A model generated the notes under the pieces. That model ran no database searches and was not told the origin of the DNA. It saw nothing but the letters and a program-made list of their open reading frames with translations. Below, piece after piece: positions 32 through 56,583 of a stretch of 56,583 nt of DNA (position 1 is its first letter; the number at the start of each line of letters is the position of its first letter). The translations under genes were made by a program, and so were the position numbers. This DNA is from a virus (Duplodnaviria; Caudoviricetes), in IMG/VR virus record IMGVR_UViG_3300005512_000041, positions 1 through 56,583 of that record. One strand, given 5' to 3'.

Positions 32-161
32 CAGAGGGTCAGCACGCAATGACGCGCTGATCCCCGCCGCAGGGAATGCGGTCTCCAGCAGAAGCAAGCG
101 GCCGGGGCGACGATCGTCCCCCGATACCCCGATCGCCCCGGTCGGCTTCTTGGAGGATGCG

Positions 162-1381: not shown

Positions 1382-1391
1382 GGAGGACAGC

Positions 1392-5117: not shown

Positions 5118-5123
5118 GCACCC

Positions 5124-6789: not shown

Positions 6790-6815
6790 GCGGGCGAGGG
6801 AACAATGAGCGGACA

Positions 6816-6988
6816 AAAGTCTGAAAGCGTCCGGGGAAAGTCTGAAAGTTGGCGACCCCTACGGGATTCGAACCCGTGTTGCCGCCGTGAAAGGGCTGAG
6901 GCTTTCGCCCACCCCTGCGGCGTTTCAGACAAATCAACCACCGCTCCCGTCTATGCCGGTCAAGGGCTTAGGGGCGGGAGTCTGAAAG
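6816..6988. repeat. Integrase arm-type sites (GTCTGAAA x4)
   Basis: AAAGTCTGAAAG at 6816 and 6837, inverted TTTCAGAC at 6923, AGTCTGAAAG at 6979, on both sides of the core. Confidence 0.75.
6850..6896 (-). other. attP core: 3' half (47 bp) of tRNA-Glu(TTC)
   Basis: Reverse complement GCCCTTTCACGGCGGCAACACGGGTTCGAATCCCGTAGGGGTCGCCA = anticodon arm, T arm and CCA; D arm and 5' acceptor strand absent. Confidence 0.9.
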
Positions 6989-7019
6989 CCGGACCCCAGG
7001 TGGATGGAGGTGGCGGCGA

Positions 7020-17800: not shown

Positions 17801-20800
17801 GCCCTTTGCCGCGGCCGGCGAGGCGCTGCTCAAGACGTTCGATCTGCTTCTCGATCCGTGACCTCGTAATCCGCTCTCCCTCAGTGCCTTTTACCTCTTC
17901 CAGAAGATCGCGGTATTGATCGATCTGATCTTGGATGAGCCCTTCCTGAAACTCGTTGCTGATCGGGATGATGCCGAACGCCGAGTGCGTGATGATGACG
18001 GCGTCCAGATCCTCGTTCGCCACGTTGGCGATGAACTGCTTGCGCCGGTCGGTGTGGAAGCGTCGATCGTCGGCAACCGCGATCCGCGCTGTCGGATACT
18101 GCTCGTAGAACTCCTTGGTGAACTGGCCCAGCATGTGCCCGGGGACGACGTACATCGGCTTGCGCACGAGGCCGAGACGGCGCATCTCCATCCCAGCGCC
18201 GATCATGGCCGACGTCTTTCCGGCCCCCACGGCGTGCGCCATGTAGGTGTTGCCCTCCTGGATGATCCGGGCAATCACGCGCTTCTGGTGCGGACGCCAG
18301 GACCAGTCGGACGAAACCCCCGGCGTCGTGAGGTAAGAGCCGTCATACTCCGGGACGACGAGGTTGTTGTATTCCTCGTTGTAGAGTGCCGCGAGCCGGT
18401 CGGCCCGGTCTTGATCGCTGAAGATCCAGTCAGAGAACCGCGCCTTGATCTCGCGCATCTTCTCGGCGGCAGCCTCAGTGGCCGCCGGGTTCAACTGCTG
18501 CGTCCGCTTCCCGTCCACATAGACCGTGTCGTAGACCTTCGGATCCTGCTTGTTCAGAGCCGAGGCGATCAGTTCCGTGGCGGACTTCTCCGGCGTGCCA
18601 TAAGTGGACGTGGCGGCGGCCGAGCTCTTGTCGCCGTCGACCTGCCATAGCGCCAGGGCCGGCGTGTAGCGAACCGACAAGCTGTTCAGGCCGAGGGACT
18701 CGGTCGCGAACTCCTCGATCGTCTCGGTGGGGATCCACGGCATTCCCAGGTTCGCGCCGATTTCCGACGGCGGGATCGGGGCGGGTTGGGCCGCTTCCAG
18801 GGCGGCGACGTTGCGCACGAATGCCGGATCACGGTCGGCTTCGGCCCGGGCGATCCGGAGCTTCCGGCGCACGTTGCCCGACAGATACTTCTCACGGGTC
18901 TGGTACGTCTCCTCAGTGCCGGGCACCCGGTAGATGGCATCGCCCAGGCCTTCGATCACCTCGCTGCGGGTCTTTCCGGAAACCTCTGCTATCCGGTCGA
19001 TGTCGACCCGGCCGGTCTGGTTCAGGGTGTAGAGGAGCGCATCGCCGAGGCTGTTGATCTCGGGCTTGCGGTCCTTGGTGATGACGTTCTCACGGAATAC
19101 CGCGCCCTTGTCGGCGGTGCCGTCCGCGTCGTTGTAGTGCTCAATCGCGCGCAGGCGATAGGATTCCGGGTCATCGCTGAACGGATCGACGTTCGGGCGC
19201 TTCTCGACGACGATGTCGTCCATCTCGTCCGGGTTGAAGGTGCCCTCGCTCCACGGGCGCCCTTCGGCCTCCGCCTTTTCCCGCGCTTCCGCCCGCGCCT
19301 TGGCGATTTCCGACAGCGACGCCTCGGCTTCGATCATGTCGGTGGGGTCGAACGTACCTTCGTCGAACTCCTCCCCGGCGTAGCGCGCCTCTTCGCGGGC
19401 GGCGGATCGGGCGTTCTCTGCCTGGATGCGGGTCGGTCGGCGATAGCTGTACTCCGCCTTGTTGATCGGGCCGAACTGCTCGACGAAAGCGTCATAGGCC
19501 TTGTTCAGCCGTGCGCGGGCGGTCTCTGCATTGGCAGTGTCGCCGGCCAAGTCGGCGGCATAGACGGCGCGTAGGGAGTCACGAACCGGGATCAGCGCGC
19601 GGATCCGCTCTATCTCTCCCCCGGATCGGCCGCCCTTCACGCCCTTGCCGCGGCCCTGGACTGACGATCCGACGCCATCGACCACCTGCATCAGCTTGCC
19701 ATCGTCGCTGATATAGAACGATCCGTCCTTGCGCTCGCTGGTGCCGAAGTCGACCTCTGCCCGATCGGTCGTGTCCTGCCATTCGCCCATGACGCCGGCG
19801 GGTAGCCGCGCCGCAGCCTCGTCAAGGAGGGACTGGATGTCTGCGCCAGGCCGCGCTTTGACGCCATAGCGGTTCTGGTAGAGCGGATCGAAGAAGCCTT
19901 CCTCGCCCAGCACCATGGCCGGGTTGTCCGCGAAGTAGGCGCTCACGCGCCCCTTCATCGGCTTGCCTTCCTTGTTCGGCAGCGTCACCTCGACCGTCTC
20001 GGTCCATCGGCCGTCGCCGGCCGGCTCGCTCGGGAGGCGCTTGCGCAGGATCACGATGTCCGTCGTGACCTTGGTGCCGGCGTTCCGCTCAAAGGCATCG
20101 CCCGGCAGACGGATTGCCCCCACCAGATCGGCGCGCTCCGCCATATACTCGCGCGCGCTGGTGTCGATCTTGTTCATCGTGCCAGCCGACGAGATGAACA
20201 TCAGCAGGCCGCCCGGGCGCACCGCGTCCAGGGACTTCGCGAAGAAATAGTCGTGCAGCAAGAACCGGTGCTTGGCGTACTTCGGGTCGGACTGGACGGC
20301 GACATCCGCGAACGGCGGGTTGCCGATGACCAGGTCGAAGGTGTTCTCCGGCAGCGGCGCCTTGGTGAAATCGTCTTGCCGCACGCCCCACTTCGGATAG
20401 AGCAGGCGCGCGATCCGGGCCGTCGTGTGATCCAGTTCCAGGCCGGCATAGTCGGTGGCCTGCGCCACGTCGGCCGGCATCATCCCAGCGAAGTTACCGA
20501 CGCCCATACCCGGCTCGAACACCTTGCCCCCCTCGAAGCCCAGGCGGCGCGCGGCGTCCCACATCGCGCGGACGATGGTTTCAGAGGTGTAGTGCGCATA
20601 CTGGATCGAGCGTTGAGCGGTCTTGTACTCGGTGTCGGTCAGCAGTTCCCGCAGGCGCTCGCCGATCTTCTCGAAGCCCTTGGCGAACTTCCCGTCGGCG
20701 TCGGGGAACGCGCCCTTGATGCCGCCCCAGCCGACATAGCGCGCCAGTTCCGCCTGCTCCGCCTTGGTCGCCGGCCGCCCTTCGGCCTCGATCTCGCGCA

Positions 20801-23800
20801 GGAGTTCGATCGCCCGGATGTTGTCGAGAGCCTTCTGCCGCCAGGATCGATCTTCGGCGAGCGTCCCCGGCTCAATGAAGTGGTTCTCGCCCTTTACAGT
20901 TTGGGCGGTGTCAGAACCTCGGCCATTGCGTCCTCGGGAAACTCGATCAGCGTCCCGCGCACGATCTCCTCGGCCTCCCGGCGTTTCGGCAGCGTCGGGT
21001 TCGGCCCCGCGATCTCGTCGAACAGCCGTTGCGCTTCGACCGCCTTCTTCTGCAGGTGCGAGTCCAGTGCGCCGGTTCGACGCAACTCGCGGAACATCTT
21101 CGGCGCTTGATCGCGCATCGCCATCAGATACGGACCCTTGAACTCCATCGGTCCCTTCCTCCTGTAGCACCGCGTCGAGATCGGCGGCGGCCACCTCCTG
21201 ATATGGGGTCATATCGCCGGACATCACCCCCGGATAGTCGCGGGCTGCGTTATACCACAGTTTGATGAACGGCCGCGCCGCGTCTCCCAGGTCTTCGACG
21301 ATCGCCCGGGCGAAATCGTTGAACTTCCGCGCCCCCGCCTCGACATGGAAGACGGCGAGCACGGCGCCCTCGGCCATGATCTCCGGATCCACCCCGGCAG
21401 ATAGCTGGTTCTTCAGCTTGTCGCGCAGTTTGCGGCGGGCTTCCTCGGCGCGGTCCTGGCTGATCAGTTTGTTGTTGGCGCCGTAGGCGGCAGGGCGGGC
21501 AGGCTTTCGCCCCTCCGTCCGCGGCGACACCTCGACGATCTCCAGACGGCCAGATTCCTTGGCTGCGTCCAGAACGTCGCGGCCCTGCTCATTCCGTCGC
21601 TGGTTCTCGGCCTTCTTCAGCGCGGCAGCGATAGCACCTGCGCGCGTGCTGCCGTAACCGTCCCACACCGCTATCGGATCCCGGCGACGCACAATCGCCT
21701 TGAAGTCTCCGAAGGTCCGACCGTCCGCCACTGCCTCTTGTCGCGTCATCTTGGCGATTGAGGTGAGGGAGAGCCCGGCGGGAATGTCCGGGTCTCCTTC
21801 CGGCCCCTCCATCTTCGCGACATTCTCCCGGCGCTGCCGCTCACGGTCGTCTTCGACCGGCACTTCGCCGCGGCGGATGGATTCCTGTTCTGTTGGCGCG
21901 GCTACCGGTGTCAGGCCTTCGGTGTCGAGGCCGCGCGCCTGATCAGCCAGCGTCTTCGGATCGCCTTCACCCGTGGCGCGCATCCACACTTCCACAATCG
22001 AGCCCGGCCGCACGTATCCGGCCTTCTCGAATGCCTGCCGCACACCAATACCCGGCTGAAAGGCTGGGCCGGTACTGCGTTCGACGGTCCAGCCCAGCGC
22101 AATCGGGGCCTCTTGGGCAAACCGCTCACGCGACATCCCGTCGGATTTGAACTTCCGTGCCATTGCCTCGGCTTCGGCGACGATCGACTCCGCCGTTGGC
22201 GGCGGCGCCACCAGATCCGCCAGCGCCTCCCGGACTTGCTGCTCCTTCTTCTTCGGGAAGATCCAGCCCTTCGCCTTCTTCGCCCAGATCGGGCGGGCGC
22301 CGGTGATTCCCTTGATCCGGTCCAGGTTCTCCTTGGTCTGGCCTGTGACGATGATCGACTTGTCCGAGTAGTCGCGGATCGTCAGGGCCGGTTCTGCCGG
22401 CAGCGGGCCGCCGCGCTCGGCATCGGTCATGCCATCGCGGCCGACCACGTTGACCAGGACACGCGGACCAGTGGGGGCGACCCGTCCTGTCGGCTGCGCC
22501 TCGCCCGGCTGGTTCACGTCCTGCGCAGATGCTTGCTGAACCGGGGCCGTGGCGGGCGCAGTTTCCTGCGGTTCCTGCGGTCCGATCGGGTCACCAGTGG
22601 GCTCCCGCATCGGCGCCCGTGCCCCGCGCACATCACGATGCGCAAGGCGCAGCGCGTTTGCCCGCGCAATCTCAATCTCCGCATCGTTGAAGGCTGGCCC
22701 AGAGATCAGGTCCATGTATGCGTCGTAGGCCGCGCCCTCCAATCCGGTTGGGTTCCGATCGGCCGCGGCATCGATGATCACCTCAATGTCTGACTGCTCG
22801 GTCAGGCCCTCGTCGACCAGCCGGCGGGCCCGGTCGCGAAGCGCCATGTCCTCTTCGTTGCGCGTCGGCCCGCCCAGCATGTCGGGTTGCTCGCGTTCGG
22901 CCACCGGCAAGAGCCCGGTCACATCAAGCGCCGGCGCCTCATCGGCTGTCGCGACAAGCTCATCGTCCTGCTTTTCCTCCGGCTCGACCTCCCGGGCCGG
23001 CGGGTCGATGTCCAGAGGCCGGCCGGCGGCGGCGTCCTCGAGCATCGCCTTGCCTCGGCTGATCGCCCCGGTATCGATCGGGCTCGCCTCGTCCTCCGGC
23101 GTGACCGGGGCCATGCGCTTGGGCGGGGTCAGATCCGTGGCGCCGAGATAGCCTTCGGCCGGGCCGGGCATCGGCGGCGGCGCGGTGGGCACAGGGGCCG
23201 TCGGCGCGGCTTCCTCCTCACCGATCATGTCCTCGGCCGGCATGGCGCCTTCCGGCACGCCTGCAACGTCCTGGCCGGGGATCGTCGGGCCGGCTGGTTG
23301 CTGCTCCACACCCCCGGCGCCATCTTGCCCGTCAGCGGCGCCCCTACGGCCGCGCACGAAGGGTTCGGTGATGACGGCGAACGTGCCGCCCATGGCGCCG
23401 CCGAGAATGCCCGCTCGGGCCAGGTTCTCCAGCGCCTCGCCCCAGGTCATGTTCTCGTCCAGGACGCCGACGCTGTAGCCGTCCTGAAGCGCCTGCGTGA
23501 ATACCTCCTGCGCGGCCTCGGCGAGGGTGCCCTTGAAGAGGCGGGACACAAACGACTTCCCCGGCCGCGCCAGAATGCCGAGCGGGATAGCCTCGGGGAT
23601 CGCCTCGGCAGCGGCCATGAACAGGCCGTCCTGCATCGCTTCATCGTGCGTCCGGCCGTTCCCGCGGCTCTCCGCGTACTGGTCGCCATAGACCTGGCCG
23701 CCCATGATGGCGACACCGGTTACCGGATTTCGGGTGATCATCGTGGCCGCGACGGCGGGTGCCATGTTGGTCATCGACACCGCGAAGTCAAAGGCGAAGC

Positions 23801-24257
23801 CCTTGAACGAGTTCGGGTCGATGTCCGGGCGGGCCGCCTGCATGTCGGCGGTCGCCTGTTCGGCAACCCGCCGCGCGGTCTCCTGCGTCTCTGCGCGCCG
23901 CGCATTGATCTCGGCCATGGCCTGTTCTTCGGTCTGACCCGTGGCCCCGCCGAAGTATTTCGCGCCCATGGCCGACGCGCGCTCCGTCGCCCCGAGATCG
24001 CCATTGGCTCCCGACTCTTGGATACCCGCGATCATCCGACGGGTCATCGGCCCGAGCGTGTTCAGGAAACCATCCCACGTCTCGGCCCAGGTCGCCCCGG
24101 CAAAGGTGCGAGGGCGCTCCTGCTGATCGAGCGCGACCAGACCCGACGTGTCGAGCGGCGTCAGGCCAGACGTATCTAGACCGCTGCTACCGCTTTCAAC
24201 CGGCGCCAGGCCAGTCGTGTCCAGCGGAACGAGGCCGGTGGTGTCCAGGCGTGCCAT
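11802..24257 (-). CDS. Giant (4151 aa) DarB-like polyvalent virion protein: N6-adenine MTase, SNF2 helicase, ART-like and zincin-like domains
   Basis: FEPGMGVGNF and NPPF (~20310-20520); AHAVGAGKT (~18220); DEAH (~17740); FHGT..GFFFS..VYL..DGV (~15170-15745); HEVLH (14832-14846); last gene of the ejection cluster. Confidence 0.92.
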   Translation of the reverse strand: MARLDTTGLVPLDTTGLAPVESGSSGLDTSGLTPLDTSGLVALDQQERPRTFAGATWAETWDGFLNTLGPMTRRMIAGIQESGANGDLGATERASAMGAKYFGGATGQTEEQAMAEINARRAETQETARRVAEQATADMQAARPDIDPNSFKGFAFDFAVSMTNMAPAVAATMITRNPVTGVAIMGGQVYGDQYAESRGNGRTHDEAMQDGLFMAAAEAIPEAIPLGILARPGKSFVSRLFKGTLAEAAQEVFTQALQDGYSVGVLDENMTWGEALENLARAGILGGAMGGTFAVITEPFVRGRRGAADGQDGAGGVEQQPAGPTIPGQDVAGVPEGAMPAEDMIGEEEAAPTAPVPTAPPPMPGPAEGYLGATDLTPPKRMAPVTPEDEASPIDTGAISRGKAMLEDAAAGRPLDIDPPAREVEPEEKQDDELVATADEAPALDVTGLLPVAEREQPDMLGGPTRNEEDMALRDRARRLVDEGLTEQSDIEVIIDAAADRNPTGLEGAAYDAYMDLISGPAFNDAEIEIARANALRLAHRDVRGARAPMREPTGDPIGPQEPQETAPATAPVQQASAQDVNQPGEAQPTGRVAPTGPRVLVNVVGRDGMTDAERGGPLPAEPALTIRDYSDKSIIVTGQTKENLDRIKGITGARPIWAKKAKGWIFPKKKEQQVREALADLVAPPPTAESIVAEAEAMARKFKSDGMSRERFAQEAPIALGWTVERSTGPAFQPGIGVRQAFEKAGYVRPGSIVEVWMRATGEGDPKTLADQARGLDTEGLTPVAAPTEQESIRRGEVPVEDDRERQRRENVAKMEGPEGDPDIPAGLSLTSIAKMTRQEAVADGRTFGDFKAIVRRRDPIAVWDGYGSTRAGAIAAALKKAENQRRNEQGRDVLDAAKESGRLEIVEVSPRTEGRKPARPAAYGANNKLISQDRAEEARRKLRDKLKNQLSAGVDPEIMAEGAVLAVFHVEAGARKFNDFARAIVEDLGDAARPFIKLWYNAARDYPGVMSGDMTPYQEVAAADLDAVLQEEGTDGVQGSVSDGDARSSAEDVPRVASNRRTGLAPAEEGGRSATAVRRDRGAEPDAAETPGGRGDRARDADRVSRGRNGRGSDTAQTVKGENHFIEPGTLAEDRSWRQKALDNIRAIELLREIEAEGRPATKAEQAELARYVGWGGIKGAFPDADGKFAKGFEKIGERLRELLTDTEYKTAQRSIQYAHYTSETIVRAMWDAARRLGFEGGKVFEPGMGVGNFAGMMPADVAQATDYAGLELDHTTARIARLLYPKWGVRQDDFTKAPLPENTFDLVIGNPPFADVAVQSDPKYAKHRFLLHDYFFAKSLDAVRPGGLLMFISSAGTMNKIDTSAREYMAERADLVGAIRLPGDAFERNAGTKVTTDIVILRKRLPSEPAGDGRWTETVEVTLPNKEGKPMKGRVSAYFADNPAMVLGEEGFFDPLYQNRYGVKARPGADIQSLLDEAAARLPAGVMGEWQDTTDRAEVDFGTSERKDGSFYISDDGKLMQVVDGVGSSVQGRGKGVKGGRSGGEIERIRALIPVRDSLRAVYAADLAGDTANAETARARLNKAYDAFVEQFGPINKAEYSYRRPTRIQAENARSAAREEARYAGEEFDEGTFDPTDMIEAEASLSEIAKARAEAREKAEAEGRPWSEGTFNPDEMDDIVVEKRPNVDPFSDDPESYRLRAIEHYNDADGTADKGAVFRENVITKDRKPEINSLGDALLYTLNQTGRVDIDRIAEVSGKTRSEVIEGLGDAIYRVPGTEETYQTREKYLSGNVRRKLRIARAEADRDPAFVRNVAALEAAQPAPIPPSEIGANLGMPWIPTETIEEFATESLGLNSLSVRYTPALALWQVDGDKSSAAATSTYGTPEKSATELIASALNKQDPKVYDTVYVDGKRTQQLNPAATEAAAEKMREIKARFSDWIFSDQDRADRLAALYNEEYNNLVVPEYDGSYLTTPGVSSDWSWRPHQKRVIARIIQEGNTYMAHAVGAGKTSAMIGAGMEMRRLGLVRKPMYVVPGHMLGQFTKEFYEQYPTARIAVADDRRFHTDRRKQFIANVANEDLDAVIITHSAFGIIPISNEFQEGLIQDQIDQYRDLLEEVKGTEGERITRSRIEKQIERLEQRLAGRGKGRKDQVFTFEEMGVDFLFVDEAHEFRKLDFATKMSNVKGVTAEGSTYAWDLFVKTRYLETVNPGRNLVLASGTPITNTMAELFTVSRFLQMNELEARQLTHFDAWAGAFGDTVTNLEQDPAGGYKQVTRFAKFINVPELSVMVRQAMDVVTSNMLAQYVTRPDIKGGKRIMNLAEKSDALEAFQAGLADRMRALAQRKGPPKPGDDILLKVIGDGRHAAIDMRLIDNSSRSEVPSKLDLMVDNIYRIWEETKRQPLHRPTPEGYEEKAFDKGPATQIAFVTLGLSPARGFVVPDYIRSELVRRGVPKNQIAVLAEYKTHVAKQRLFNDMNEGKVRVMIASKVTGLNVQRRLYALHNLDPLWFPADDEQRNGRGIRQGNLNPEIEIHDYSTKGTYDSTMWGLMETKARFIQGFFEGDPSIRDMEDVGKASDYEQAKALSTNDPRLMTLTQLRQDLERAQRRKGAFERDVYAVRSRVQRAEGQVNYYTRRIEGVEQDIAQRVETKGDAFKGTVNGKVYEERVEFGEALMGEIERLAAQEREVKDQAVAEVGGFPLEVDVYRIGQEWRAALALKRNAGFEEEINIGTSVRGMVQAIESVGRSLEAQKKRFEEELAAARADIEQFSPKMDQRFEGQKEIDDLREQVRALESELAAETKQEEAAAAAQVEDTEEGGDRFSFAADAGPQTDAPAFKRWFGDSKVVDENGEPLRVFHGTNADIEAFDAGAGGRNTGASDGAQGFFFSSDPETAASYTEFHDPYVEMMGNNWLSRTYARISEEFLRISRIGTAYAAGGNVVPVYLSIQNPFVVDVRGARYDPQEFLDSIMAAKEAGHDGVVFQQARDSYEGRAAPADVYVPFRPEQIKSATGNRGTFDPSDPRINFSRPGDGGTAGDDGRTAFSHNGTTYTWDPKLLAQADDLVTFLRRQVRQMNPQAKVVVVDKVIEQRTGRTGLGVSVEDLPGFGRAMVIAMRYVDADGNVRANPSPADTLNHEVLHDLRRQGLFTAEEDRVLFGDSDRNRLWRRQFDVERLYAGESDAVRREEAAAMAWEAWKAGRLKVAGRIERAFQKVERFFRAVANWITGKGFTATEPPFLDRAAEQVFERMASGEVGRRRPQAGEQDSADRFSIPSDARDDAAATDPRDPQTREARQSLMMKLVGAQPIDRAMRVPFQIFGGLDEMGRWKPGAMLSEKAGDLIVNAEFKEDGRMAWLNPTLRTARSGLLDRYGLDQEYVDRERERALEERAIMAEIPELMNVLRKEGIGSDEARVLQAVLTGEELPAGAMERVSEPIRNAIDAMGAEAVELGLLSPEAFERNRGAYLHRVYLKHEEQNGALARWVANVAGRRRRKIVGNQFKGRGMFVEVPYERLMKDMPDLLEGGQAPAMGAEFRILDRVADTGKVTKRVYLEEGREVPSEFASYSDKGLWQVRGTRGDKIILWRDYTKAEREQMGEIVDARYTIAKTYMGMAHDLSTGRFFRDIADNPEWSMKAEPPAGTWKSAQDYNRFWADPDVQWVLVPDGNIPQSRTKRYGALAGRWVRAEIWRDLAEVERMQSPRWWDALITNWKLNKTARNPVVHMNNVMSNAVLMDLADVRAVDLVGAIRSMIKKDAAYQDAVKNGAFGADMMSVEIRDNVLKPLLEQIERDMQEGRGSLESSAGVVGKLFDRLWRMAKYLDRKGIDLYRFEDEVFRMATYVRRRDQGMDAKAAAREAREQFLDYDIRAPWVNAARRTVLPFIAYTYRAIPVLAQSVAARPWKLAKYATIAWVANAMAYAITEDEDEEDRQRRSLRTEEQGSTWIGAPRMIRMPWDDDYGNPVFLDVRRWIPAGDVFDMNQGASALPMPSWLQFGGPLMIAAELLLNKQAFTGQEITNEYTDNAGDKVAKTADYLWKAWMPSAPWVPGSWYWEKIATAATGGRDRSDRPYGLDSAALSSIGIKVKPQDVETGFYYHGLQFDRIERELRGDMRRLGRDRHRNMISQEKFERDLARIYEKLERLGQERSRVFAD
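20894..21148 (-). CDS. 84-aa gene nested out of frame within the giant gene (possibly TnpV-like)
   Basis: AGGAGG RBS before ATG; amphipathic helical sequence; coincides with an R/G-rich linker in the host frame. Confidence 0.65.
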   Translation of the reverse strand: MEFKGPYLMAMRDQAPKMFRELRRTGALDSHLQKKAVEAQRLFDEIAGPNPTLPKRREAEEIVRGTLIEFPEDAMAEVLTPPKL

Positions 24258-42469: not shown

Positions 42470-44287
42470 TCAGTAACCGACGCGCTTGCGGGCGCCGCGC
42501 TGCACCGTGCGGGTCATCGTTTTCTCGACCGACGCGACCATGAGGCCGCCAGTGACCAGCATTCGAGTTGCCCGCATCAGTGGGTGATCGTCATCTACCG
42601 GCTTGCCGTCTTCGCCCTTGTGATATGTCCGGTACTCCCGCAGCCAGTTCCCGCAGGTCTGGCGGCACACCTTCAGGCGGCCGGTCGCGAGGCGGTTGGC
42701 GATCTGCGCCGTGCCGGCCTCGAATGGATCGGGCAGCGGGTTCAGCTTCACGCCCTGGCTTAGGTAGTTCGACAGCACCTGTCGCCCCACGTCCTCGGTG
42801 CGCCGGCTGCCGGTCGGATTGAACACGCCGGGTATCCACTCGCCACGCAGCTTGATCGCTGCGGCCTGGGTTGCCAGATCGGCGGCGGAGCGAACGTCGG
42901 TGGCGTAGAGATAAAGGGTGTCGTCGGCCGGGTCCAAGGCGCTCCACAGCGCGGCGATCTTGTCGGGGCCGACATCCAGCACGAACGCCCGGGGCCAATA
43001 CGCCGGGATCTTGCCCACGTCGTCCGCCTCGTAGACGAAGTCCGGTTCCGGCGCGCGGAACACGTTGCCCTCGCCCATGGTGGGGAACAACTCGGTCATG
43101 GCCCACACCAGAGCATCGGCGCGGTCGGGGCTGCCGTCGCCGTCGTAGCCGGCCGGGGTGATCTTGCAGAGTTGGTCTTCCAGCGCTGGGAAGGTGCCGA
43201 CGTGGCTGATCTGCCCGGCCTCGTACCGGCTGGCGATCGGTTCGGCGCGGACGTGCTTCCCCCGGCTCGCATAGACTTCGATGATCGGCAGGCCAACGCG
43301 CTCGGCCTGGAGAGTTTGGCGCACAAGGTCACCGCCCTGGTTGCGCTCGATGACGATGGCGTCGGCGTTGTGCTTGTCGAACTGTTCGATGGCGCGGCGT
43401 GCCCACTGACGCGGAGAGCCGGACAGCGACCCGTCTTCGATGACATAGCCGCGCTCGTCGTCGCCCTTCGCGGCCACGATGATGCCGTGCTCGTTCGATC
43501 CTTCCTCGGCGCTGACGGCGTGATCGACCGCGACGATGATGCGATGGAAGGTGATACCTTCCTCGTCCAACTCTTCGAGAGTCTTGCGGTGCTCGGCGAT
43601 GTTCGCGCGGTTGAAGATAGCGCCGACGGCCTGGGGCTCGTACTCGCCAAGCCAGATGTGGGCGTAGCGTTCGGGCCGCGCTCGCTCATCCAGCGCCCGG
43701 TCGGCCTCAAGCTCGTCGGTGAAATAACGGTTCTGATCATAGTTCACCGGCCGAATGATGGCGTTCTCTGGAATGATCGGCCCGCGGAAGAATTGATCGA
43801 CCGGATCCTGGGCGCTGCGCGGGTTCCAGGAGAACCACATCTCGGACCCGGGCTTGCGAATGGTGGGACGCAGCATTTCGAGCGATCGGCCGGAAAGCGT
43901 CTGCGCCTCCTCGACCCACGCGATATCGAAGCCCTCCAGCGACTTGATGGACTCGGCCGTGTGGTCCTGCATCCCCTGGAAAATGATCGTGCCGCCGCCG
44001 GGCGTCTTGATTTCGTCGCGCTGGCAGTCGAACAGATACCCCAGGCCGAACAGTTCGATCTTGTCTTCGATCAGCCGCTTGACCGACTCCCGCAGAGACT
44101 TCTGTACCTCGCGGACGCAGACCGCTCGCAAGCCATGGTTCGCAGCCGCGTTCGCCACCATCGCCTCGGCGAAGAAGTGCGACTTGGCCGATCCGCGCCC
44201 GCCGTAGAGGGCCTTGTACCGGCTTGGCCGCATGAAGTCGGTGAAGACATCCGAGGCGGTGCCTATTCGGACGACTGGTTGCCCCAT
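42470..44287 (-). CDS. terL: Terminase large subunit with two tandem RNase H-like domains
   Basis: YGGRGSAKS Walker A, WVEEAQ Walker B, SWNP; nuclease VAVD...ERNQGG...DRADA; further ~180-aa nuclease-like tail. Confidence 0.93.
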   Translation of the reverse strand: MGQPVVRIGTASDVFTDFMRPSRYKALYGGRGSAKSHFFAEAMVANAAANHGLRAVCVREVQKSLRESVKRLIEDKIELFGLGYLFDCQRDEIKTPGGGTIIFQGMQDHTAESIKSLEGFDIAWVEEAQTLSGRSLEMLRPTIRKPGSEMWFSWNPRSAQDPVDQFFRGPIIPENAIIRPVNYDQNRYFTDELEADRALDERARPERYAHIWLGEYEPQAVGAIFNRANIAEHRKTLEELDEEGITFHRIIVAVDHAVSAEEGSNEHGIIVAAKGDDERGYVIEDGSLSGSPRQWARRAIEQFDKHNADAIVIERNQGGDLVRQTLQAERVGLPIIEVYASRGKHVRAEPIASRYEAGQISHVGTFPALEDQLCKITPAGYDGDGSPDRADALVWAMTELFPTMGEGNVFRAPEPDFVYEADDVGKIPAYWPRAFVLDVGPDKIAALWSALDPADDTLYLYATDVRSAADLATQAAAIKLRGEWIPGVFNPTGSRRTEDVGRQVLSNYLSQGVKLNPLPDPFEAGTAQIANRLATGRLKVCRQTCGNWLREYRTYHKGEDGKPVDDDHPLMRATRMLVTGGLMVASVEKTMTRTVQRGARKRVGY

Positions 44288-47067: not shown

Positions 47068-48036
47068 TCAGGCCTGCTGCCCCGCCTCTGCGAGCATGGC
47101 CTTCGCCCGCCGGGACTTCTCGACGTCGGTCAACTTCGGGTCGCGGCCGATGCTGGCGAGGGCGTCGTACCTCTCGCGATCTCCGGTGCGGGTGAAGTGG
47201 TTGATCGCGGTGCCGAACGCCATGCGACCGTCAGGCAGGGTGAGTTCTCGCATGGTCGCGGCGTCGCGCTCGGTCGGGTTGCTGGCGATGGCCTGGCGCA
47301 CGTCCTGGTCCCTGGCCTTAAGCATCCGCGGCGGGTCTTTGCCGTCCTCGGCCATGCGGACGTTGGCCTCTCGGAACGCCTGCCGGCAGATGGCCGGGGT
47401 GGCGCCTGCGTCGATCCAGTCGAGGGCGTACTGCAGGTCGGTGGGGTGCGGATAGGCTCGGCGGTGCTGGGGCGACCAGACCTCGGCGATCATGTCGTCG
47501 AACTCGCCGATGATCTCCCGAGCCATGGCCTTTCGATCGTCCTGCCCCTGGCCCTGCTCGGTCGGGTCGGCGCGATCGTCGTGGGGGGGCTTTGGGGGGG
47601 ACTCTTCTCTTATCTTCTCTTCTCTTATCTTATCTAGGCGGGACATTTCGTGACACTGCGTGACACTGCGTGACGGGGTCTGTGACGCAGCATCGTCACG
47701 TTGCCTCTCGCGCTGCGCTCTTTTCCGCTCGGCGGCGGTGCTATCTTCCCGTTTTGGCTGACGTTTTTCCCACGAGACCACGCGGTCGCCGTCGAGCACT
47801 TTGCCCTGCATCGCCTGGTAGATCGCCTCTACCTGCTCGGGCTCCATGTCAAAGGCGGCGGCAACGTCTTCGTGGTTCCAGCCCTCCAGCACACCTCTTT
47901 CGGCTGCCTGAGAGGCGCATTCGAGCATTGCGGCCCAGACCGACAACGTGTCACGCAATGTCACGCTTGCTCTGCGTGACACCACCCGCCACTTGGGATC
48001 GGTCACTGTTCCGTGGTGCCATCGAAGCCAGTCCAT
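47068..48036 (-). CDS. Replication initiator protein
   Basis: MDWLRWHHG..DPK, W.KRQPKRED.AAERKR.QR, SVTQCH, DKIREEKIRE linker; coupled to dnaB. Confidence 0.8.
   Translation of the reverse strand: MDWLRWHHGTVTDPKWRVVSRRASVTLRDTLSVWAAMLECASQAAERGVLEGWNHEDVAAAFDMEPEQVEAIYQAMQGKVLDGDRVVSWEKRQPKREDSTAAERKRAQRERQRDDAASQTPSRSVTQCHEMSRLDKIREEKIREESPPKPPHDDRADPTEQGQGQDDRKAMAREIIGEFDDMIAEVWSPQHRRAYPHPTDLQYALDWIDAGATPAICRQAFREANVRMAEDGKDPPRMLKARDQDVRQAIASNPTERDAATMRELTLPDGRMAFGTAINHFTRTGDRERYDALASIGRDPKLTDVEKSRRAKAMLAEAGQQA
47603..47700. repeat. Probable replication origin inside the initiator gene
   Basis: Four GTGAC direct repeats plus an inverted GTCAC (47650-47700) next to a pyrimidine tract of TCTT(A/C) repeats (47603-47635), as in lambda O-type origins. 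Confidence 0.6.
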
Positions 48037-49463
48037 CAGTTCACTCCATCGGTGATCACACCGGTTTCCATGTTGGCGTAGAGTTTCGCGTACCCGGCCC
48101 GGCCGCCGCGGCGCTTGCCGACGATGATCTCCATCCGATCGCGGGCGGCTTCCATCTTCTGGCGCCACTGGTCCTGGCGGGTCATGAACTTGCCCATGTC
48201 CTCCTCGGCACGCTGCACCGGCTCGGACTTCTCCAGGTAGTAGGACTCGCGGTAGGGGAAGAAGACGACATCAGCGTCCTGCTCTATGCTGCCGCTCTCC
48301 CTCAGATCAGCGAGCCCCGGCCGCTTGTCCTCCCGCTGCTCGACGGCGCGGGAAAGCTGGGACAGCGCGACCACGGGGCACTCCAATTCCTTCGCCAGCG
48401 CCTTCAGCGCGCCGGTGATCTCGGTCAGGTCGTTGGTGCGGTTGTTGTTCCGGTTGCGACTGGTGTTCCCAGGCGCGATCAGTTGCAGATAGTCGATGAA
48501 CACCGCGCTCAACCCGTGGCGCCGGCGCATCCGCATGGCGCGGCGGCGGATCTCGCGGACGTCGCTGGCCGGGGTGTCGTCGATGTGGAGCGGGATGCGG
48601 GACAGCGTCTCGTGCGCCTCGGAGATCTTCATGAACTCGTCCTGGCCGAACTCGCCGTTTTCCTGGCGCTCCTGGCTGATCCCCGTCTCCATCGCGATCA
48701 TGCGCTTGGCGATCTCGTCGGCCGGCATCTCCAGGGAGAAGAACGCGACCGGCAGGCCCTTCATGGCGATGTTGCGGGCCATGCGCACCGCGACGGCGGA
48801 CTTCCCCATGCCGGGGCGACCACCGCCGATGTAGAGCCGCCCCGGCCCCAGCAGCCCGATGGCGCGGTCCAGGTCGACCATGCCGGAGGACACGCCCCCA
48901 GCCTCGGGGCCGTCGCGCATGACTCGCTCAGCCGCTTCCAGGGCCGCATCCAGGCCGGAGGACACGGGCAGCAGGTCGCCCTTGCGCGCACCGTGACTGG
49001 CGAGGGCGTCCAGGTCGCTCTGCGCGGCGCTCACGATCGCGGTCATGTCGTCGAGGGAGTGATCGCGGGCGTTGTTGACCAGCGTCTCTCCGATGTCGAT
49101 CGCCTCGCGGCGCTGCCAGCAGTCGAAGATGACCCGGCCATAGTCGGCGGTGTTGATGACCGTGACCACGGATCCGGCCAGCGTGACGAGATACTGAGCC
49201 CCGCCGACGTCTTTCAGCGCGTCGTCCTGGTCGAAGACACCTTTGAGCGTATGCGGTGCGGCCTGCCGGCCCTGGTCGATCAGCTTGGCGCACTCGGCGT
49301 AGATCCGGCCGTGGACCGGGTCGGCGAAGTGCTCCGGTTGGAGAAAGTCGACGACGCGCTCATAGGCCTTGTTGTTGACCATGATCGCGCCGAGCAGCGC
49401 GGCCTCGGCCTCGAGGTTGTGCGGCGGCTCGTTGTCCTGTTCGTGGGCCAATTCCGCGCTCAA
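48036..49463 (-). CDS. dnaB: Replicative DNA helicase
   Basis: PPHNLEAE, GRPGMGKS, FSLEM, IDYLQL, LSQLSR, DLRESGSIEQDAD. Confidence 0.96.
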   Translation of the reverse strand: MSAELAHEQDNEPPHNLEAEAALLGAIMVNNKAYERVVDFLQPEHFADPVHGRIYAECAKLIDQGRQAAPHTLKGVFDQDDALKDVGGAQYLVTLAGSVVTVINTADYGRVIFDCWQRREAIDIGETLVNNARDHSLDDMTAIVSAAQSDLDALASHGARKGDLLPVSSGLDAALEAAERVMRDGPEAGGVSSGMVDLDRAIGLLGPGRLYIGGGRPGMGKSAVAVRMARNIAMKGLPVAFFSLEMPADEIAKRMIAMETGISQERQENGEFGQDEFMKISEAHETLSRIPLHIDDTPASDVREIRRRAMRMRRRHGLSAVFIDYLQLIAPGNTSRNRNNNRTNDLTEITGALKALAKELECPVVALSQLSRAVEQREDKRPGLADLRESGSIEQDADVVFFPYRESYYLEKSEPVQRAEEDMGKFMTRQDQWRQKMEAARDRMEIIVGKRRGGRAGYAKLYANMETGVITDGVN

Positions 49464-52140: not shown

Positions 52141-52431
52141 TCAGACCATCCCGATCGCTCTCTTGTAGACCTCGAGCAGCGTCTCCTGCTCGTCGCGCTC
52201 GTCCTTGTCGATCCGCCGCAGCTTGAGGATTTGGCGCATGATGGCCACGTCGAAGCCGCCGGCCTTGGCCTCCGCGAAAACCTCGCGGATGTCTGCGGCG
52301 ATCTCTTCCTTGCTCTCGGTCAGGTTCTCGATCCGCTGGATGAAGGAGTCGAGTTGCCCGGCGTTGATGCCGCCGACGTAGGGGCTATCAATCGTGGTGG
52401 TGGTGTCCGGCTGTTCGGTGGTGTGAAGCAT
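52141..52431 (-). CDS. gapR: GapR (DUF2312) nucleoid-associated protein
   Basis: L.SFIQRIENL.E.K..IAADIREVFAEAK..GFD...RQILKLR...Y..AIGM. Confidence 0.92.
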   Translation of the reverse strand: MLHTTEQPDTTTTIDSPYVGGINAGQLDSFIQRIENLTESKEEIAADIREVFAEAKAGGFDVAIMRQILKLRRIDKDERDEQETLLEVYKRAIGMV

Positions 52432-53719: not shown

Positions 53720-54190
53720 ATGAACAGAGTTCGGACCCTCTCCGCGGTCGCGGTGATCGCGCTCGCCGGCAGTGGCGGCTGGCACTGGTTGCAAACCAGT
53801 CTGGAGAACGATCGCCTGCGCGACGCCGCTCTTGCCCAGGCTCAGCCGACCGAGGACCAGTCGATCCGGGCGGCGCACTTCATCGACCGGAAGATCGCGG
53901 ACCTGATCCAGCCGGGGCCGGGCGACCGATGGACGGCGAAGGCGCTGTTCGGATACGAGACGGCGATCGTCCGGCCGGACACCCGGTCGGTTCGATGCAG
54001 CAACACGGGGATCGAGATCGACTTCGGCCCGGACGTGTCCGTCTACGTGTTCTTCGCCCCGGACAATCCGACCGACGAGTGGCCGGACATACATCCCGCC
54101 TTCTGGCGCGGCCCGGCGGGCAAGGCGTTGATCGACGCCATGTGCCGGAGAACCGAGGAGCGGCTTGCCGCCTTGGAGCGCCAGGGCTGA
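53720..54190 (+). CDS. Exported or membrane-anchored protein, antisense to the cro operon
   Basis: N-terminal signal/TM segment MNRVRTLSAVAVIALAG, two Cys, globular composition. Confidence 0.65.
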   Translation: MNRVRTLSAVAVIALAGSGGWHWLQTSLENDRLRDAALAQAQPTEDQSIRAAHFIDRKIADLIQPGPGDRWTAKALFGYETAIVRPDTRSVRCSNTGIEIDFGPDVSVYVFFAPDNPTDEWPDIHPAFWRGPAGKALIDAMCRRTEERLAALERQG

Positions 54191-54192
54191 CA

Positions 54193-54426
54193 TCAGGCGG
54201 CCTCGCCGGATGTTCTGGCGGTCGGTCGCAGCGTCTCGGGTCGGATCGGGTCAATGTCGAAACCGCGATCCCGACATTCCCGCATGATCTTGTAGTGGAT
54301 GCGCTCGGGAAATCCGTCTCGCTTCCAGTTCGAAAGCGAAGACGGGCCGACGTCGAAGATTTTCTCCACCGCCGCCCGGCCGCCAAGGGCCTCATAGACC
54401 CGCTCGACAGGATGTTGCTTCTCCAT
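54193..54426 (-). CDS. Cro-like HTH protein
   Basis: ALGGRAAVEKIFDVGPSSLSNWKRDGFP; divergent from the repressor; alternative start 54435. Confidence 0.85.
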   Translation of the reverse strand: MEKQHPVERVYEALGGRAAVEKIFDVGPSSLSNWKRDGFPERIHYKIMRECRDRGFDIDPIRPETLRPTARTSGEAA

Positions 54427-54433
54427 GCGCGCC

Positions 54434-54478
54434 ATAATGCTTCAAATGTTTTGAAGCTTCAAGCTCAAAATGTATGAA
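54434..54478. promoter_or_regulatory. pR promoter and oR operators
   Basis: TTCAA-N5-TTGAA at 54441-54455, degenerate CTCAA-N5-ATGAA at 54464-54478; - strand TTGAAG-N17-CATTAT ending 7 nt before the cro ATG. Confidence 0.75.
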
Positions 54479-54511
54479 ATGACAAATCGTGCGGCAGAGC
54501 GAAAATTGCGC

Positions 54512-54835
54512 ATGACCGCTACCCTGCACGTAGGCGTGAAAGCGCGCATCGCCGTCCTGTACCATCTGTTCCGAGAGACGGAGCAGGCGGCGGGCCGCGA
54601 CGGGTCCAAGCGGGCGTTCGCGGCGCGCCTAAACAGCAGCGAGACAACTCTGTCGAACTGGACCAAGGGCCAGCGTCCGCTGATCGATACGGGGATAGAG
54701 ATCAGCCGTGTGTTCGGGGTCACCCTCGACTGGCTCTACACCGGCGACCCGGACGGCCTGAGCCGCGGCCGGTGGCGCGAGATTGAGCAGGCCATGGACG
54801 ATCTCGGCAATCGCGAAGAGTGCGAATCCCTTTAG
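54512..54835 (+). CDS. CI-like XRE repressor without S24 peptidase domain
   Basis: FAARL...TTLSNW.KG.RP...ISRVFGVTLDWLYTG; only ~107 aa. Confidence 0.85.
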   Translation: MTATLHVGVKARIAVLYHLFRETEQAAGRDGSKRAFAARLNSSETTLSNWTKGQRPLIDTGIEISRVFGVTLDWLYTGDPDGLSRGRWREIEQAMDDLGNREECESL

Positions 54836-54933
54836 CGCTCTGCGATTTTCTCACCGACCCGCAACAGGTAGATGTAGCGCGTTAACCAAGAACGCGGGAC
54901 AATATGTCGGCATTCGCTCGACGAGGTTCCGCT

Positions 54934-55623
54934 ATGCTTGCGATCGAAGACTACAGCAACATCAACCGCCATATCCGATACCACCGGAGCCGCATCGAAT
55001 CCCGCCAGTTGCGCCTTGCCGCGTCTGACGACATGGATGCGTTCGTGCGTGCTCGTTCGAGATTCCCCGGCTACATCCACCCGGCCTTCGACCCGGCGCA
55101 ATCGGCACTGCCTGCCGGGTCCGCTTTTTGGGTCTCCGTAGAGACGGCGTCCGGTGAGATCGTGGCGTGTGCCGCGACCCGGAAATTCGATAATGCGCGT
55201 CTGCTCGACCTGTTCATGTCGCGCCAGGTCTGGCAGTCACGGTGCGCGGTGATCGACGACATGGATCCACTCGACATCGACTGGCCGGATGAGGCTTTGG
55301 GCGTCCGCGGCACATTGGCCATTCACGGATCACTGATCGTGCGAAACGATTATCGCAAGGGCGGCCTGGGCACGCACCTCATACGGCTGGTCCGTGCCGC
55401 CAGCTTGCGCGCATGGCGCCAGGATTGGAACTTCGGACTGGTACGTGCCGAGCTCGAGGCCACGGCGTTCCAGGCCTGCCGCTATGGGTATCCGTTCACC
55501 TGCCGCGCCTACGAAGCGCAGCCGGATTGGGGGCCGAGGCACGACGTCGAGTACCTGAATCTGATCTCTCAGAGCGAGATGTTGGCCGAATATGCCAAAG
55601 AGCCGGAAAACCTGGGATTATGA
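54934..55623 (+). CDS. GNAT-fold acyltransferase-like protein
   Basis: GEIVACAATR strand and HGSLIVRNDYRKGGLG CoA-binding motif A; GAGGT RBS (alternative start 54904). Confidence 0.7.
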   Translation: MLAIEDYSNINRHIRYHRSRIESRQLRLAASDDMDAFVRARSRFPGYIHPAFDPAQSALPAGSAFWVSVETASGEIVACAATRKFDNARLLDLFMSRQVWQSRCAVIDDMDPLDIDWPDEALGVRGTLAIHGSLIVRNDYRKGGLGTHLIRLVRAASLRAWRQDWNFGLVRAELEATAFQACRYGYPFTCRAYEAQPDWGPRHDVEYLNLISQSEMLAEYAKEPENLGL

Positions 55624-56291
55624 ACGATGACCACTGAGGCGATGCAGCCCGGCAGGGGCAACAGAATCCGCTCGTAGTGCCGCCCCTGATCCTCTTCCTC
55701 CGCATACCAGAGCACTTCGGAGAACATCGGGCGCTCCGTGTGCCGCACCCAGAGGTAATCTAGGGTCGCCGCAGCAGCGTAGACCCCGGACCTGCCCTCC
55801 CCCAGCACCATACCCGTCCGGTCCACGCCAGACGCCTCAACGACATGGGGTGCGTGCCTGACGATCCGGAACGGCTCGCCGGCGGAAGGCGTTTCTATGA
55901 TCGACGCTCGCTGATCGGCCTCAATGGCAGCAAAGTCGCCGGCCGCCCACGACGCGACAAGACCTTTGAATGGCTCGGCCGTCGCCGGCCGCAACCGCCT
56001 GAGCACAAAGCCGCGATCGTCGCTTGCCTCGCGATGCTCAATCCCGCGTGACGCGCGCCACATCGGGTGATCGCGGAACCCCTTCTCGATCGACAGAAGC
56101 GTTTTCAGCGTGGCGCTCCAGCCCGGCGCATCCATCCGACGCACCATGGGCTCCGACACCTGCGCCCGCTTGGCGATCTTGCGGTAGCTCCACCGCTCCG
56201 AAGAATCGGCCAGCAGCGCCCTGGCAAGTTCCTGGCAGTCGCGATGGAGCAAGGTGCTGACGGCTGCGACTTTGCTTCTGGCTGTGAGCAT
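55569..56291 (-). CDS. HTH plus PAS-like (PAS_5-type) regulator
   Basis: N-terminal SYRKIAKRAQVSEPMVRRM..PGW..TLKTL HTH; C-terminal FRIVRH...GVDRTG...DY......P...YERILLPL; GGAGG RBS. Confidence 0.7.
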   Translation of the reverse strand: MLTARSKVAAVSTLLHRDCQELARALLADSSERWSYRKIAKRAQVSEPMVRRMDAPGWSATLKTLLSIEKGFRDHPMWRASRGIEHREASDDRGFVLRRLRPATAEPFKGLVASWAAGDFAAIEADQRASIIETPSAGEPFRIVRHAPHVVEASGVDRTGMVLGEGRSGVYAAAATLDYLWVRHTERPMFSEVLWYAEEEDQGRHYERILLPLPGCIASVVIVHNPRFSGSLAYSANISL

Positions 56292-56356
56292 TGGACCCTC
56301 CGTCCCCTGCCGATTCGCTAAAGAATAGTTGTTCGCATTGTGAGGTCATACAACCG

Positions 56357-56385
56357 TTGACGTGCGAAATAATTTTCGCAACCAT
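56357..56385 (+). promoter_or_regulatory. Promoter with 18-bp palindromic operator
   Basis: TTGACG (56357-56362) directly followed by TGCGAAA-TAAT-TTTCGCA (56363-56380); related half site ending at 56337. Confidence 0.65.
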
Positions 56386-56431
56386 TAACAGAATGCGCCC
56401 CGCCAAGGACGCCCTCTTTCGGGAGAACGCC

Positions 56432-56583
56432 ATGCAAGACCCGAACGGCTTCGCCAATGACGTTGCCCTTTCCCCCGCCCAATCACGACGGCTGCGCGAG
56501 ATCGTCGCGGCCATGGAAAACCCAGATCCGGACAATACGTCGGTAGCTGCTGCGCGGGCTCTTTTTCAGGCCGCGGCCGAAAT
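56432..56583 (+). CDS. Small ORF cut by the window end (68 aa if joined to position 1)
   Basis: GGGAG RBS; MQDPNGFANDVALSPAQSRRLREIVAAM...; the frame stays open across a 56583/1 join to TGA at 50-52. Confidence 0.6.
   Translation, partial: MQDPNGFANDVALSPAQSRRLREIVAAMENPDPDNTSVAAARALFQAAAE

Follow-up and report, generated by a model that had tools for sequence, protein, structure and literature searches.

A conserved gene pair of a GNAT acyltransferase and a PAS protein, and its version with a predicted DNA-binding domain beside the cI-like repressor gene of a phage

Introduction

What does a gene for a putative acyltransferase, paired with a gene for a putative sensory DNA-binding protein, do next to the repressor gene of a temperate phage? 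This question is raised by the IMG/VR virus record IMGVR_UViG_3300005512_000041, which we analysed as one whole stretch of 56,583 bp (hereafter the window; classed as linear, CheckV completeness 95%, G+C content 65.5%). Here, a two-gene cassette lies between a cI-like gene that lacks the S24 peptidase domain and the putative promoter, under CI control, of an operon of exonuclease, RecT, excisionase and integrase genes. The first gene of the cassette (54934-55623, + strand) encodes a GNAT-fold acyltransferase of 229 amino acids (aa) and lies in an open reading frame (ORF) of 54904-55623, in which the start ATG at 54934 is the one used in homologues. The second (55569-56291, - strand) encodes a 240-aa regulator with a predicted N-terminal XRE-type helix-turn-helix (HTH) and a predicted C-terminal PAS_5-like sensor domain. 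To our knowledge, few receptor types are known that feed sensory inputs other than DNA damage into prophage induction, namely VqmA, LuxR and AimR of the arbitrium system. Our main new result is that the GNAT and the PAS protein form, by sequence comparison, a conserved gene pair; below we describe this pair, its proteins and its surroundings in the window, and weigh what the phage version might do.

Results

In all five loci in which the PAS protein is fused to an HTH, the GNAT and regulator genes are convergent and overlap at their 3' ends. The overlap amounts to 55 bp in the window, where the ORF coordinates, the structure model and the family profile agree with the convergent HTH-PAS protein of a preliminary description made from the sequence alone, and to 55 bp in L002, 49 bp in L003, 20 bp in L007 and 62 bp in L036. 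L002, a prophage in a metagenome-assembled genome (MAG) of the Thalassobaculaceae, encodes a GNAT 70% identical and a regulator 42% identical to those of the window; its pair adjoins the gene of a phage DNA polymerase, an integrase gene lies at a distance of 2.8 kb, and none of the 10 neighbouring ORFs tested there matched a repressor family. The pair of L003, an IMG/VR fragment, lies beside head genes. The same MAG that holds L002 (G001) also carries L007, beside a Gp37/Gp68-like gene (named by eye), and L036, among ordinary chromosomal genes, together with a decayed pair (L009), a solo GNAT gene (L035) and a GNAT gene interrupted by a TAG stop codon (L037). Altogether, the GNAT family has 7 matches in this genome and the regulator family 6, and LuxI (PF00765) has none at E≤1e-10.

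The pair extends to other alphaproteobacterial genomes. In a survey of 401 of them, the GNAT profile matched in 30 genomes and the regulator profile in 25, the matches being adjacent in 10 genomes, and outside G001 the PAS half of the regulator profile alone was matched. A PAS hidden Markov model (HMM) built from the partner proteins was run on 19 GNAT-centred loci from other genomes and detected a PAS-like ORF no farther than 1.5 kb from the GNAT gene in 18 of them, the remaining locus (L048) having none within that distance by this model. Six of the 18 matched loci were seeds of the HMM; among the 13 non-seed loci 12 were matched, seven of them weakly (1e-6 to 1e-3) and five at E<1e-10. As to orientation, the 18 pairs comprise 13 with directly convergent genes, two tandem and two divergent ones, and one whose genes converge across a distance of 800 bp. 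Most pairs are chromosomal and involve a stand-alone PAS_5 protein: the chromosomal partners are 175-205 aa long (one has 295 aa), and of four that were compared with Pfam PAS_5 (cut-off 22 bits) three scored above the cut-off (25.7-34.9 bits) and the fourth reached 21 bits. Three chromosomal partners also match the MopJ model weakly (49.8-51.7 bits, cut-off 200). Overlaps at the 3' ends recur in chromosomal pairs (117 bp in L043, 87 bp in L046 and 35 bp in L044), and in these comparisons the fusion to a DNA-binding domain is limited to the phage-borne copies and those of G001. The surroundings of two chromosomal pairs resemble each other, in that the ORF before the pair in L045 and L047 could, judged by eye, be the C-terminal portion of a CcrM-type adenine methyltransferase; a MutY-like gene, its name likewise read by eye, follows the pair in L047.

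The divergence of the GNAT genes and that of the PAS genes are correlated (Spearman 0.79 over 55 locus pairs from 11 loci, based on alignment scores), which shows that the two genes are inherited as a unit but does not by itself demonstrate a co-evolved interface. A predicted complex of the GNAT with the PAS domain (score 0.01, mark 0.32) gave no evidence either way. That the GNAT and PAS genes are functionally linked is shown by the conservation of the pair, the correlated divergence of its members and the retained convergent overlap.

The fold of the enzyme, the mixed beta-sheet of GNATs with its beta4-alpha3 element for binding coenzyme A (CoA), is clear from its predicted structure. An AlphaFold2 model built from 8 sequences, with a predicted local distance difference test (pLDDT) score of 78.6, gave 180 Foldseek matches in the PDB at E≤0.001, all of them GNATs among the matches listed, and in VIA-align a best Z of 11.6 (root-mean-square deviation (rmsd) 2.8, 139 aligned) with 146 chains at Z≥8, in agreement with the GNAT-fold enzyme of about 230 aa that had been described before. 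Pfam scores stay below the cut-offs for Acetyltransf_1 (18.6 against 20.7 bits) and Acetyltransf_7 (19.6 against 27 bits). Motif A of GNATs follows the pattern R/Q-x-x-G-x-G/A; it reads R-K-G-G-L-G in the window protein, and R-x-x-G is kept in most homologues, which range from 229 to 270 aa. Judged by its profile, the protein represents an undescribed family of predicted acyl-CoA-type acyltransferases that branches off separately within the GNATs, and its CoA-binding motif looks normal. The sole long stretch of low confidence in the model (pLDDT <50) covers residues 98-115 (about 55225-55278), in which W100 and P112 are invariant across the family, as W117 nearby nearly is, and which may be a loop that folds upon a substrate or partner.

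A closer affiliation with known signal synthases was considered, the preliminary description having likened the enzyme to LuxI and FeeM. Its size pointed that way, as did a FeeM row in VIA-align (Z 10.0, rmsd 3.9, 169 aligned; tied with many generic GNATs) and Atlas feature scores of 0.82-0.83 for FeeM and Acetyltransf_5 (PF21926, PF13444), which are leads only. We do not retain the likeness in view of the hhalign comparison of a 29-sequence GNAT family profile with 13 LuxI, 5 FeeM, 11 Acetyltransf_5 and 12 Acetyltransf_1 proteins drawn from the same class of genomes (Alphaproteobacteria), which ruled it out: the probabilities were 0.2% for LuxI, 6.2% for FeeM and 8.2% for Acetyltransf_5, against control values of 98.9% for LuxI-FeeM, 100% for FeeM-Acetyltransf_5 and 96.5% for LuxI-Acetyltransf_5. 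Acetyltransf_1 reached 63.5%, over just 23 columns around motif A. Moreover, the GNAT protein has no Pfam match to LuxI (PF00765) at E≤1. The enzyme thus falls outside the known synthase clade by these profiles, yet it may make a signal. Its nearest Atlas clusters (50-488 members, Pseudomonadota) carry no Pfam family, a PDB sequence search with the GNAT profile returned nothing meaningful, PADLOC and NCBIfam gave no match for GNAT or regulator, a tblastn search for homologues of both in cultured phages (50,697 records) gave none either, and BFVD held nothing close to the cassette proteins.

The regulator belongs to a small family, for which a search of 1.84 billion proteins yielded 21 representatives at E≤0.001, and a word-based protein search found nothing for it among 2,922 candidates. 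At its N-terminus, positions 11-66 of the profile align with chains of the XRE/SinR/HipB type (best E 9.5e-5), three of the 21 family members match HTH_3 or HTH_31, and the nearest Atlas cluster is named 'HTH cro/C1-type' (0.89); by these matches the N-terminus is an XRE (cro/C1)-type HTH. The model built from the 21 sequences has a pLDDT of 91.2 and a best Foldseek E-value of 6e-4. Over residues 107-236 or thereabouts, nearly all 50 VIA rows are PAS, LOV, PYP or Cache sensor domains, the Atlas structure search returned PAS_5 clusters with template modelling (TM) scores of 0.68-0.71 by row, and the family profile matches chromosomal proteins at 1e-15 to 1e-6. According to the model, the C-terminal half is a five-stranded PAS fold, PAS_5-like in kind.

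The regulator has its own candidate operator. The palindrome TGCGAAA-N4-TTTCGCA that had been noticed in the divergent promoter, distinct from the CI operator, is found as a perfect dyad, TGCGAAA-TAAT-TTTCGCA (TGCGAAATAATTTTCGCA), at 56363-56380, directly after a -35 hexamer. A second dyad with one mismatch (TGCGAAACGATTATCGCA), of putative function, lies at 55340-55357 inside the GNAT gene, so that the two copies flank the regulator gene. At no more than one mismatch, the window thus holds two copies versus none in each of 100 shuffles. Two dyads (with 2 and 3 mismatches) also lie upstream of the L002 regulator gene, 45 bp apart, and are the sole matches within 3 mismatches in 16.7 kb. In front of the perfect dyad of the window stands a conserved block, CATACAACCG with TTGACG (56347-56362, + strand), 65 nt upstream of the regulator's start codon. 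In the alignment of the window with L002 and L003, whose regulators are just 35-42% identical, the block reads CATACAA, then TTGAC(G/T), then TGC..AA, and ATACA(A/C)..TTGAC recurs in four of the five HTH-fused loci (in L007 too), 60-70 nt upstream of the start; L036 is without it. TTGACG comes close to a consensus -35 hexamer and points outward, away from the regulator gene. Since the dyad follows it directly, the dyad fills the promoter spacer, from which we infer that the regulator would repress, not activate, the outward promoter; a VqmA-like activation of the divergent ORF does not sit well with a dyad at a repressor position. A terminator-like site at 56412-56395 (- strand; 1 found versus 1.9 expected) was not used.

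Divergent from the regulator gene, an orphan ORF starts with ATG 56432, has a Shine-Dalgarno-like GGGAGA 5 nt upstream and runs to 56583 (+ strand), where the end of the record cuts it after 50 codons. The divergent ORF of the preliminary description is there, and its smallness is provisional, the frame running off the record; it would gain 17 codons, to a stop inside 1-55, if the ends of the record were contiguous. Its G+C content at third codon positions (GC3) is 0.64 versus 0.72-0.91 in the genes around it, and a word-based search over lengths of 27-88 aa found no homologue. The divergent ORFs of the four other HTH-fused loci are unrelated, and no repressor was seen next to those loci.

On the other side of the cassette lies the cI-like repressor gene (54512-54835, + strand; 107 aa, or 121 aa if the start is at 54470), an HTH-only protein that matches Pfam HTH_3 (34.4 bits, cut-off 23) and Phage_CI_repr (27.7 bits, cut-off 22), no other Pfam family, and the phrog_4/8 repressors. 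A six-frame search of the whole 56,583-bp record gave no match to Peptidase_S24 (PF00717), and together with the Pfam result confirms the S24-less repressor noted earlier; by its domains, the protein is a CI-type HTH of the non-cleavable type. Neither ANT nor Bro-N nor pRha domains were found in the record, and because these and S24 are missing from it, an unrecognised way of inactivating CI would be needed. SOS control was a lead that we dropped: GTTC-N7-GTTC, the alphaproteobacterial LexA-box pattern, has 3 matches versus 1.87 expected, none of them in a promoter. No terminator-like site lies on the + strand between cI and the GNAT gene, which is probably co-transcribed with cI. A weak promoter-like site, ATGACA-16-GAAAAT at 54479-54506 (1 site versus 0.7 expected), would place the start of the mRNA at about 54512, and cI may be translated from a leaderless mRNA that starts at ATG 54512. 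The cI gene of phage lambda is translated from such a leaderless mRNA, made from PRM.

The pattern TTCAA-N5-TTGAA occurs twice in the record versus 0 expected from shuffles, as the CI-type operator TTCAAATGTTTTGAA in the cro/cI intergenic region (54441-54455) and as the CI-type operator TTCAATTCGTTTGAA at 10-24, and the similarity between the two regions extends beyond the shared motif. The latter copy lies in the spacer of the promoter-like site TTGATA-N17-TACGTT (3-31, + strand; the record starts 2 bp before the -35), which we infer to be the promoter of the early operon for recombination and excision, with its exonuclease, RecT, excisionase-like and integrase genes. This operon belongs to a plus-strand gene block (150-8471) that includes genes for an exonuclease (1392-2177, +), a RecT-like protein (2380-3819, +), an excisionase-like regulator (5124-5402, +), an integrase (5390-6454, +) and a C5 DNA methylase. 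The minus-strand block (8462-54435) includes terminase (42470-44287, -), DnaB helicase (48036-49463, -) and a VRR-NUC-type nuclease, and its last gene (54193-54435, -) encodes an 80-aa cro-like small DNA-binding protein (phrog_8008 DNA binding protein, E 1.5e-4; P22_Cro at just E 0.2; GC3 0.74), the first gene of the leftward early/replication operon. The layout is lambda-like, because two divergent early operons each have a CI-type operator and the cassette lies between them. Because the integrase gene is located well within the record, at 5.4 kb, the record appears to be a phage-form genome opened at an arbitrary point, between the cassette and the 10-24 operator. A 35-base pattern from the window end was found in 0 other viral contigs, and the metagenome match to the end region was L005 alone (1,725 bp, 100% identical), which stops short of the end.

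Four further features of the genome deserve mention. A single ORF of 4,151 aa (11802-24257, -) lies among virion genes and resembles a phage 'polyvalent protein'; its domains are of the ART-PolyVal (E 1.2e-21) and Eco57I-type methylase (E 4.7e-7) kinds. Antisense to the leftward early operon, beyond cro, a 156-aa ORF (53720-54190, +; GC3 0.88) with a hydrophobic N-terminus and no match in Pfam, PHROG or PADLOC looks like a second accessory gene ('moron'). The Pfam match of the C5 cytosine methylase ORF (7020-8471, +; 392 aa) covers part of the model and a separate 70-aa ORF (8259-8471) resembles, by eye, a C-terminal methylase motif; perhaps the gene is split or interrupted by an insertion. 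Finally, a small early gene of phrog_4212 is common to the window (52141-52431, -; E 3e-27) and L002 (2189-2479, +), so that the early regions of these two phages are related beyond the cassette.

Discussion

The two folds, the pairing with its conservation and co-divergence, and the dyads with their non-random placement we regard as established, and the readings weighed below start from them. The explanation that we favour, tentatively and with somewhat less than even confidence, is a cassette of an enzyme and a ligand-sensing regulator at a rexAB-like position, gating a promoter that faces the early operon. The cassette would derive from the pair of GNAT and stand-alone PAS_5 protein that is conserved in alphaproteobacterial chromosomes. 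In the lysogen, the GNAT would be made together with CI and the PAS domain would bind the substrate or product of the enzyme, while the HTH would bind the two TGCGAAA-N4-TTTCGCA dyads, both that of the GNAT gene and that of the divergent promoter spacer. The regulator would be a ligand-released repressor that keeps the outward promoter shut until the state of the ligand changes; on release, transcription would run through the orphan ORF towards the early operon with its excisionase-like and integrase genes. In this way, a chemical gate independent of CI would give the phage an input to its dormancy switch.

Several observations weigh against this explanation. As to the pair itself, correlated divergence is also expected from simple linkage, and the seven weak matches of the PAS HMM could include false ones. 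As to the sensor, the PAS matches of the regulator are modest (best VIA Z 7.9, rmsd 3.9, 97 aligned, none at Z≥8), Pfam PAS_5 (PF07310) matches neither the window regulator nor any of the 21 family members, and the PAS assignment is thus one of a predicted model with Z<8 and of transitive profile matches. As to the control region, no dyad within 3 mismatches occurs in L003, L007 or L036, there is no consensus -10 hexamer 17 bp after TTGACG, and the site was missed by the promoter scan; the outward promoter is therefore putative, as is its repression. That the two ends of the record are contiguous is a supposition, and ligand, DNA binding and enzyme activity are all predicted from sequence and models. 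The preliminary description had staked its idea on homologues being linked both to each other and to immunity regions: the first linkage is borne out, whereas the pair lies next to a cI or repressor gene in just one of the five HTH-fused loci, the window. Because the pairs have as neighbours head genes in L003, the gene of a DNA polymerase in L002 and ordinary chromosomal genes elsewhere, a role in lysis or lysogeny is no property of the family.

The strongest alternative, in our view unlikely though with appreciable weight, is that the two genes are a protein-level accessory ('moron') pair of the lysogen with no part in the lysis/lysogeny decision. The GNAT could acylate a protein (perhaps its partner, the PAS protein, or a target of host or phage origin), with the PAS protein as a sensor or inhibitor subunit, or the pair could be a toxin-antitoxin or abortive-infection module with an autoregulatory HTH. 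A position equivalent to that of lambda rexAB would suit such a pair, as would the different places that the cassette occupies in prophages and the copies of G001, where four pairs, one of them decayed, together with solo and stop-interrupted copies recall selfish or defence modules. Moreover, antitoxins are usually built with the DNA-binding domain at the N-terminus and the partner-binding domain at the C-terminus, and GNAT toxins score as high as any other GNAT in the fold search (7byy at Z 10.2, TacT2 at Z 9.3). However, the GNAT and regulator genes are convergent and form no operon, PADLOC gave no match, and the similar flanking genes of L045 and L047 (by eye) suggest a vertically inherited cellular function rather than a toxin-antitoxin system. 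The known GNAT toxin systems TacAT, AtaRT and KacAT are co-directional, with the gene of a ribbon-helix-helix antitoxin upstream of that of a toxin of about 160-175 aa. A type II system of their kind is therefore rejected here, the genes being convergent (5/5 HTH-fused loci, 13/18 others), the partner an HTH-PAS or PAS protein and the enzyme 229-270 aa long.

The model of the preliminary description is a sharper sub-case of the cassette explanation: a diffusible acylated signal made by the GNAT would be received by the HTH-PAS protein, and an antirepressor of the non-cleavable CI would be encoded by the divergent small ORF. We consider such a quorum-sensing-like circuit for lysis and lysogeny quite improbable. 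It would account for a conserved pair of enzyme and sensor, for a regulator with its own candidate operator and for a record with neither S24 nor a known antirepressor domain, and G001, the genome with most copies of the pair, has no LuxI match. Precedents point the same way, in that a transcription factor (TF) gene and a divergent orphan ORF next to cI fit the logic of the modules of a TF and a small ORF (smORF) described in temperate phages (Silpe et al., 2023; PMC10432266), and in that prophage xre-luxR-luxI modules are described as controlling lysogeny (Bunsick et al., 2026 preprint; 10.64898/2026.07.02.736140). On the other hand, the GNAT is unrelated to LuxI, FeeM and Acetyltransf_5 at the profile level, the PAS partner in most pairs is without any DNA-binding domain, and the single adjacency to a repressor gene among the HTH-fused pairs counts against this model as well. 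The orphan ORF also speaks against it, being cut by the record end, low in GC3, without homologue and unconserved between loci, and the position of the dyad fits repression rather than activation. A wider proposal of similarly low probability is that GNAT and PAS_5 are a new alphaproteobacterial family of signal synthase and receptor, unrelated to LuxI/LuxR, in which the enzyme would turn acyl-CoA into an acylated small molecule sensed by the PAS_5 domain, and of which temperate phages captured an HTH-fused version to choose between staying dormant and being induced. A functional independence of the two genes, with dyads due to chance, is hardly credible, given a PAS neighbour in 18/19 loci and in 5/5 HTH-fused ones, the correlated divergence and dyad counts above every shuffle.

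How does the favoured cassette of enzyme and ligand-sensing regulator compare with known systems? In phage lambda, rexA-rexB lie directly after cI, between two operator regions, and are expressed in the lysogen. The cassette is similar in being a set of accessory genes at the same position after cI, and differs in that it has no sequence or fold relation to rexAB and in that Rex comes without a TF having its own operator. The VqmA(Phage)-Qtip pair of phage VP882 is reportedly one of the TF-smORF modules. VqmA has an N-terminal PAS domain and a C-terminal LuxR-type HTH, an order of domains that is reversed in the window regulator, the HTH of which is of the XRE type.

In the published material that we draw on, TF-smORF modules are induction modules of temperate phages with smORFs that lack homologues, and those studied belong to phages whose cI repressors are autoproteolytic (Silpe et al., 2023; PMC10432266). 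With them, the window shares a phage TF with a sensory domain, a divergent orphan ORF and the location beside cI. In those modules, however, the TF activates the smORF, whereas the dyad here lies at a repressor position; furthermore, cI is autoproteolytic there and S24-less here, and the window alone has an enzyme gene and an incomplete ORF. The xre-luxR-luxI modules of Roseobacter prophages, as far as the preprint's account consulted here goes, are likewise found in alphaproteobacterial prophages and combine an enzyme of the GNAT superfold with a ligand-binding TF in an exchangeable cassette of the regulatory region (Bunsick et al., 2026 preprint; 10.64898/2026.07.02.736140). They consist of true LuxI and LuxR in an operon, whereas the window has a non-LuxI enzyme, a PAS_5-like sensor and convergent, overlapping genes.

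Two protein families offer further comparisons, again within the parts of the sources that we cite. MltR, an MmyB-like regulator crystallised with a fatty acid bound (PDB 3pxp; PMC3406030), also has an N-terminal XRE-type HTH and a C-terminal PAS-like ligand-binding domain. In contrast, the window regulator matches no Pfam family, 3pxp appears at Foldseek rank 42 with a probability of 0.18, and the MmyB-like family is one of actinomycetes and Chloroflexus for which no pairing with a GNAT is known. MopJ is a single-domain PAS_5 (PF07310) regulator of cell cycle and motility in Caulobacter, without an HTH (PMC4432633). The chromosomal partners of the GNAT are PAS_5 proteins too, and the sensor domain of the phage regulator falls in the same fold group; unlike here, the sections of PMC4432633 on which we rely mention no acetyltransferase or GNAT, and they name no ligand.

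That a prophage carries a signal-making enzyme and its receptor is already known from the 2026 preprint, as TF-smORF modules have been since 2023, and the concept thus has precedents. Our literature search, which covered papers outside their supplementary tables, found none on this GNAT family, its pairing with PAS_5 or the phage fusion of HTH and PAS_5. We regard the observation as sound and the conserved pair, as drawn from the sequences, as a real lead; a role in lysis or lysogeny is unproven.

For the biology of these phages and their hosts, the locus adds a candidate input to prophage induction that is built from two uncharacterised families. The novel pair of GNAT and PAS_5 protein is put at about 7% of the sampled alphaproteobacterial genomes (30/401, counted as GNAT profile matches). 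Because the phage version has a predicted DNA-binding domain and a recognisable candidate operator, the pair should be easy to assay with a reporter, and a dedicated acyltransferase in the neighbourhood is a concrete lead to the ligand of PAS_5. If GNAT and PAS_5 are indeed a signal family, single-domain PAS_5 proteins such as MopJ would gain a candidate class of ligand.

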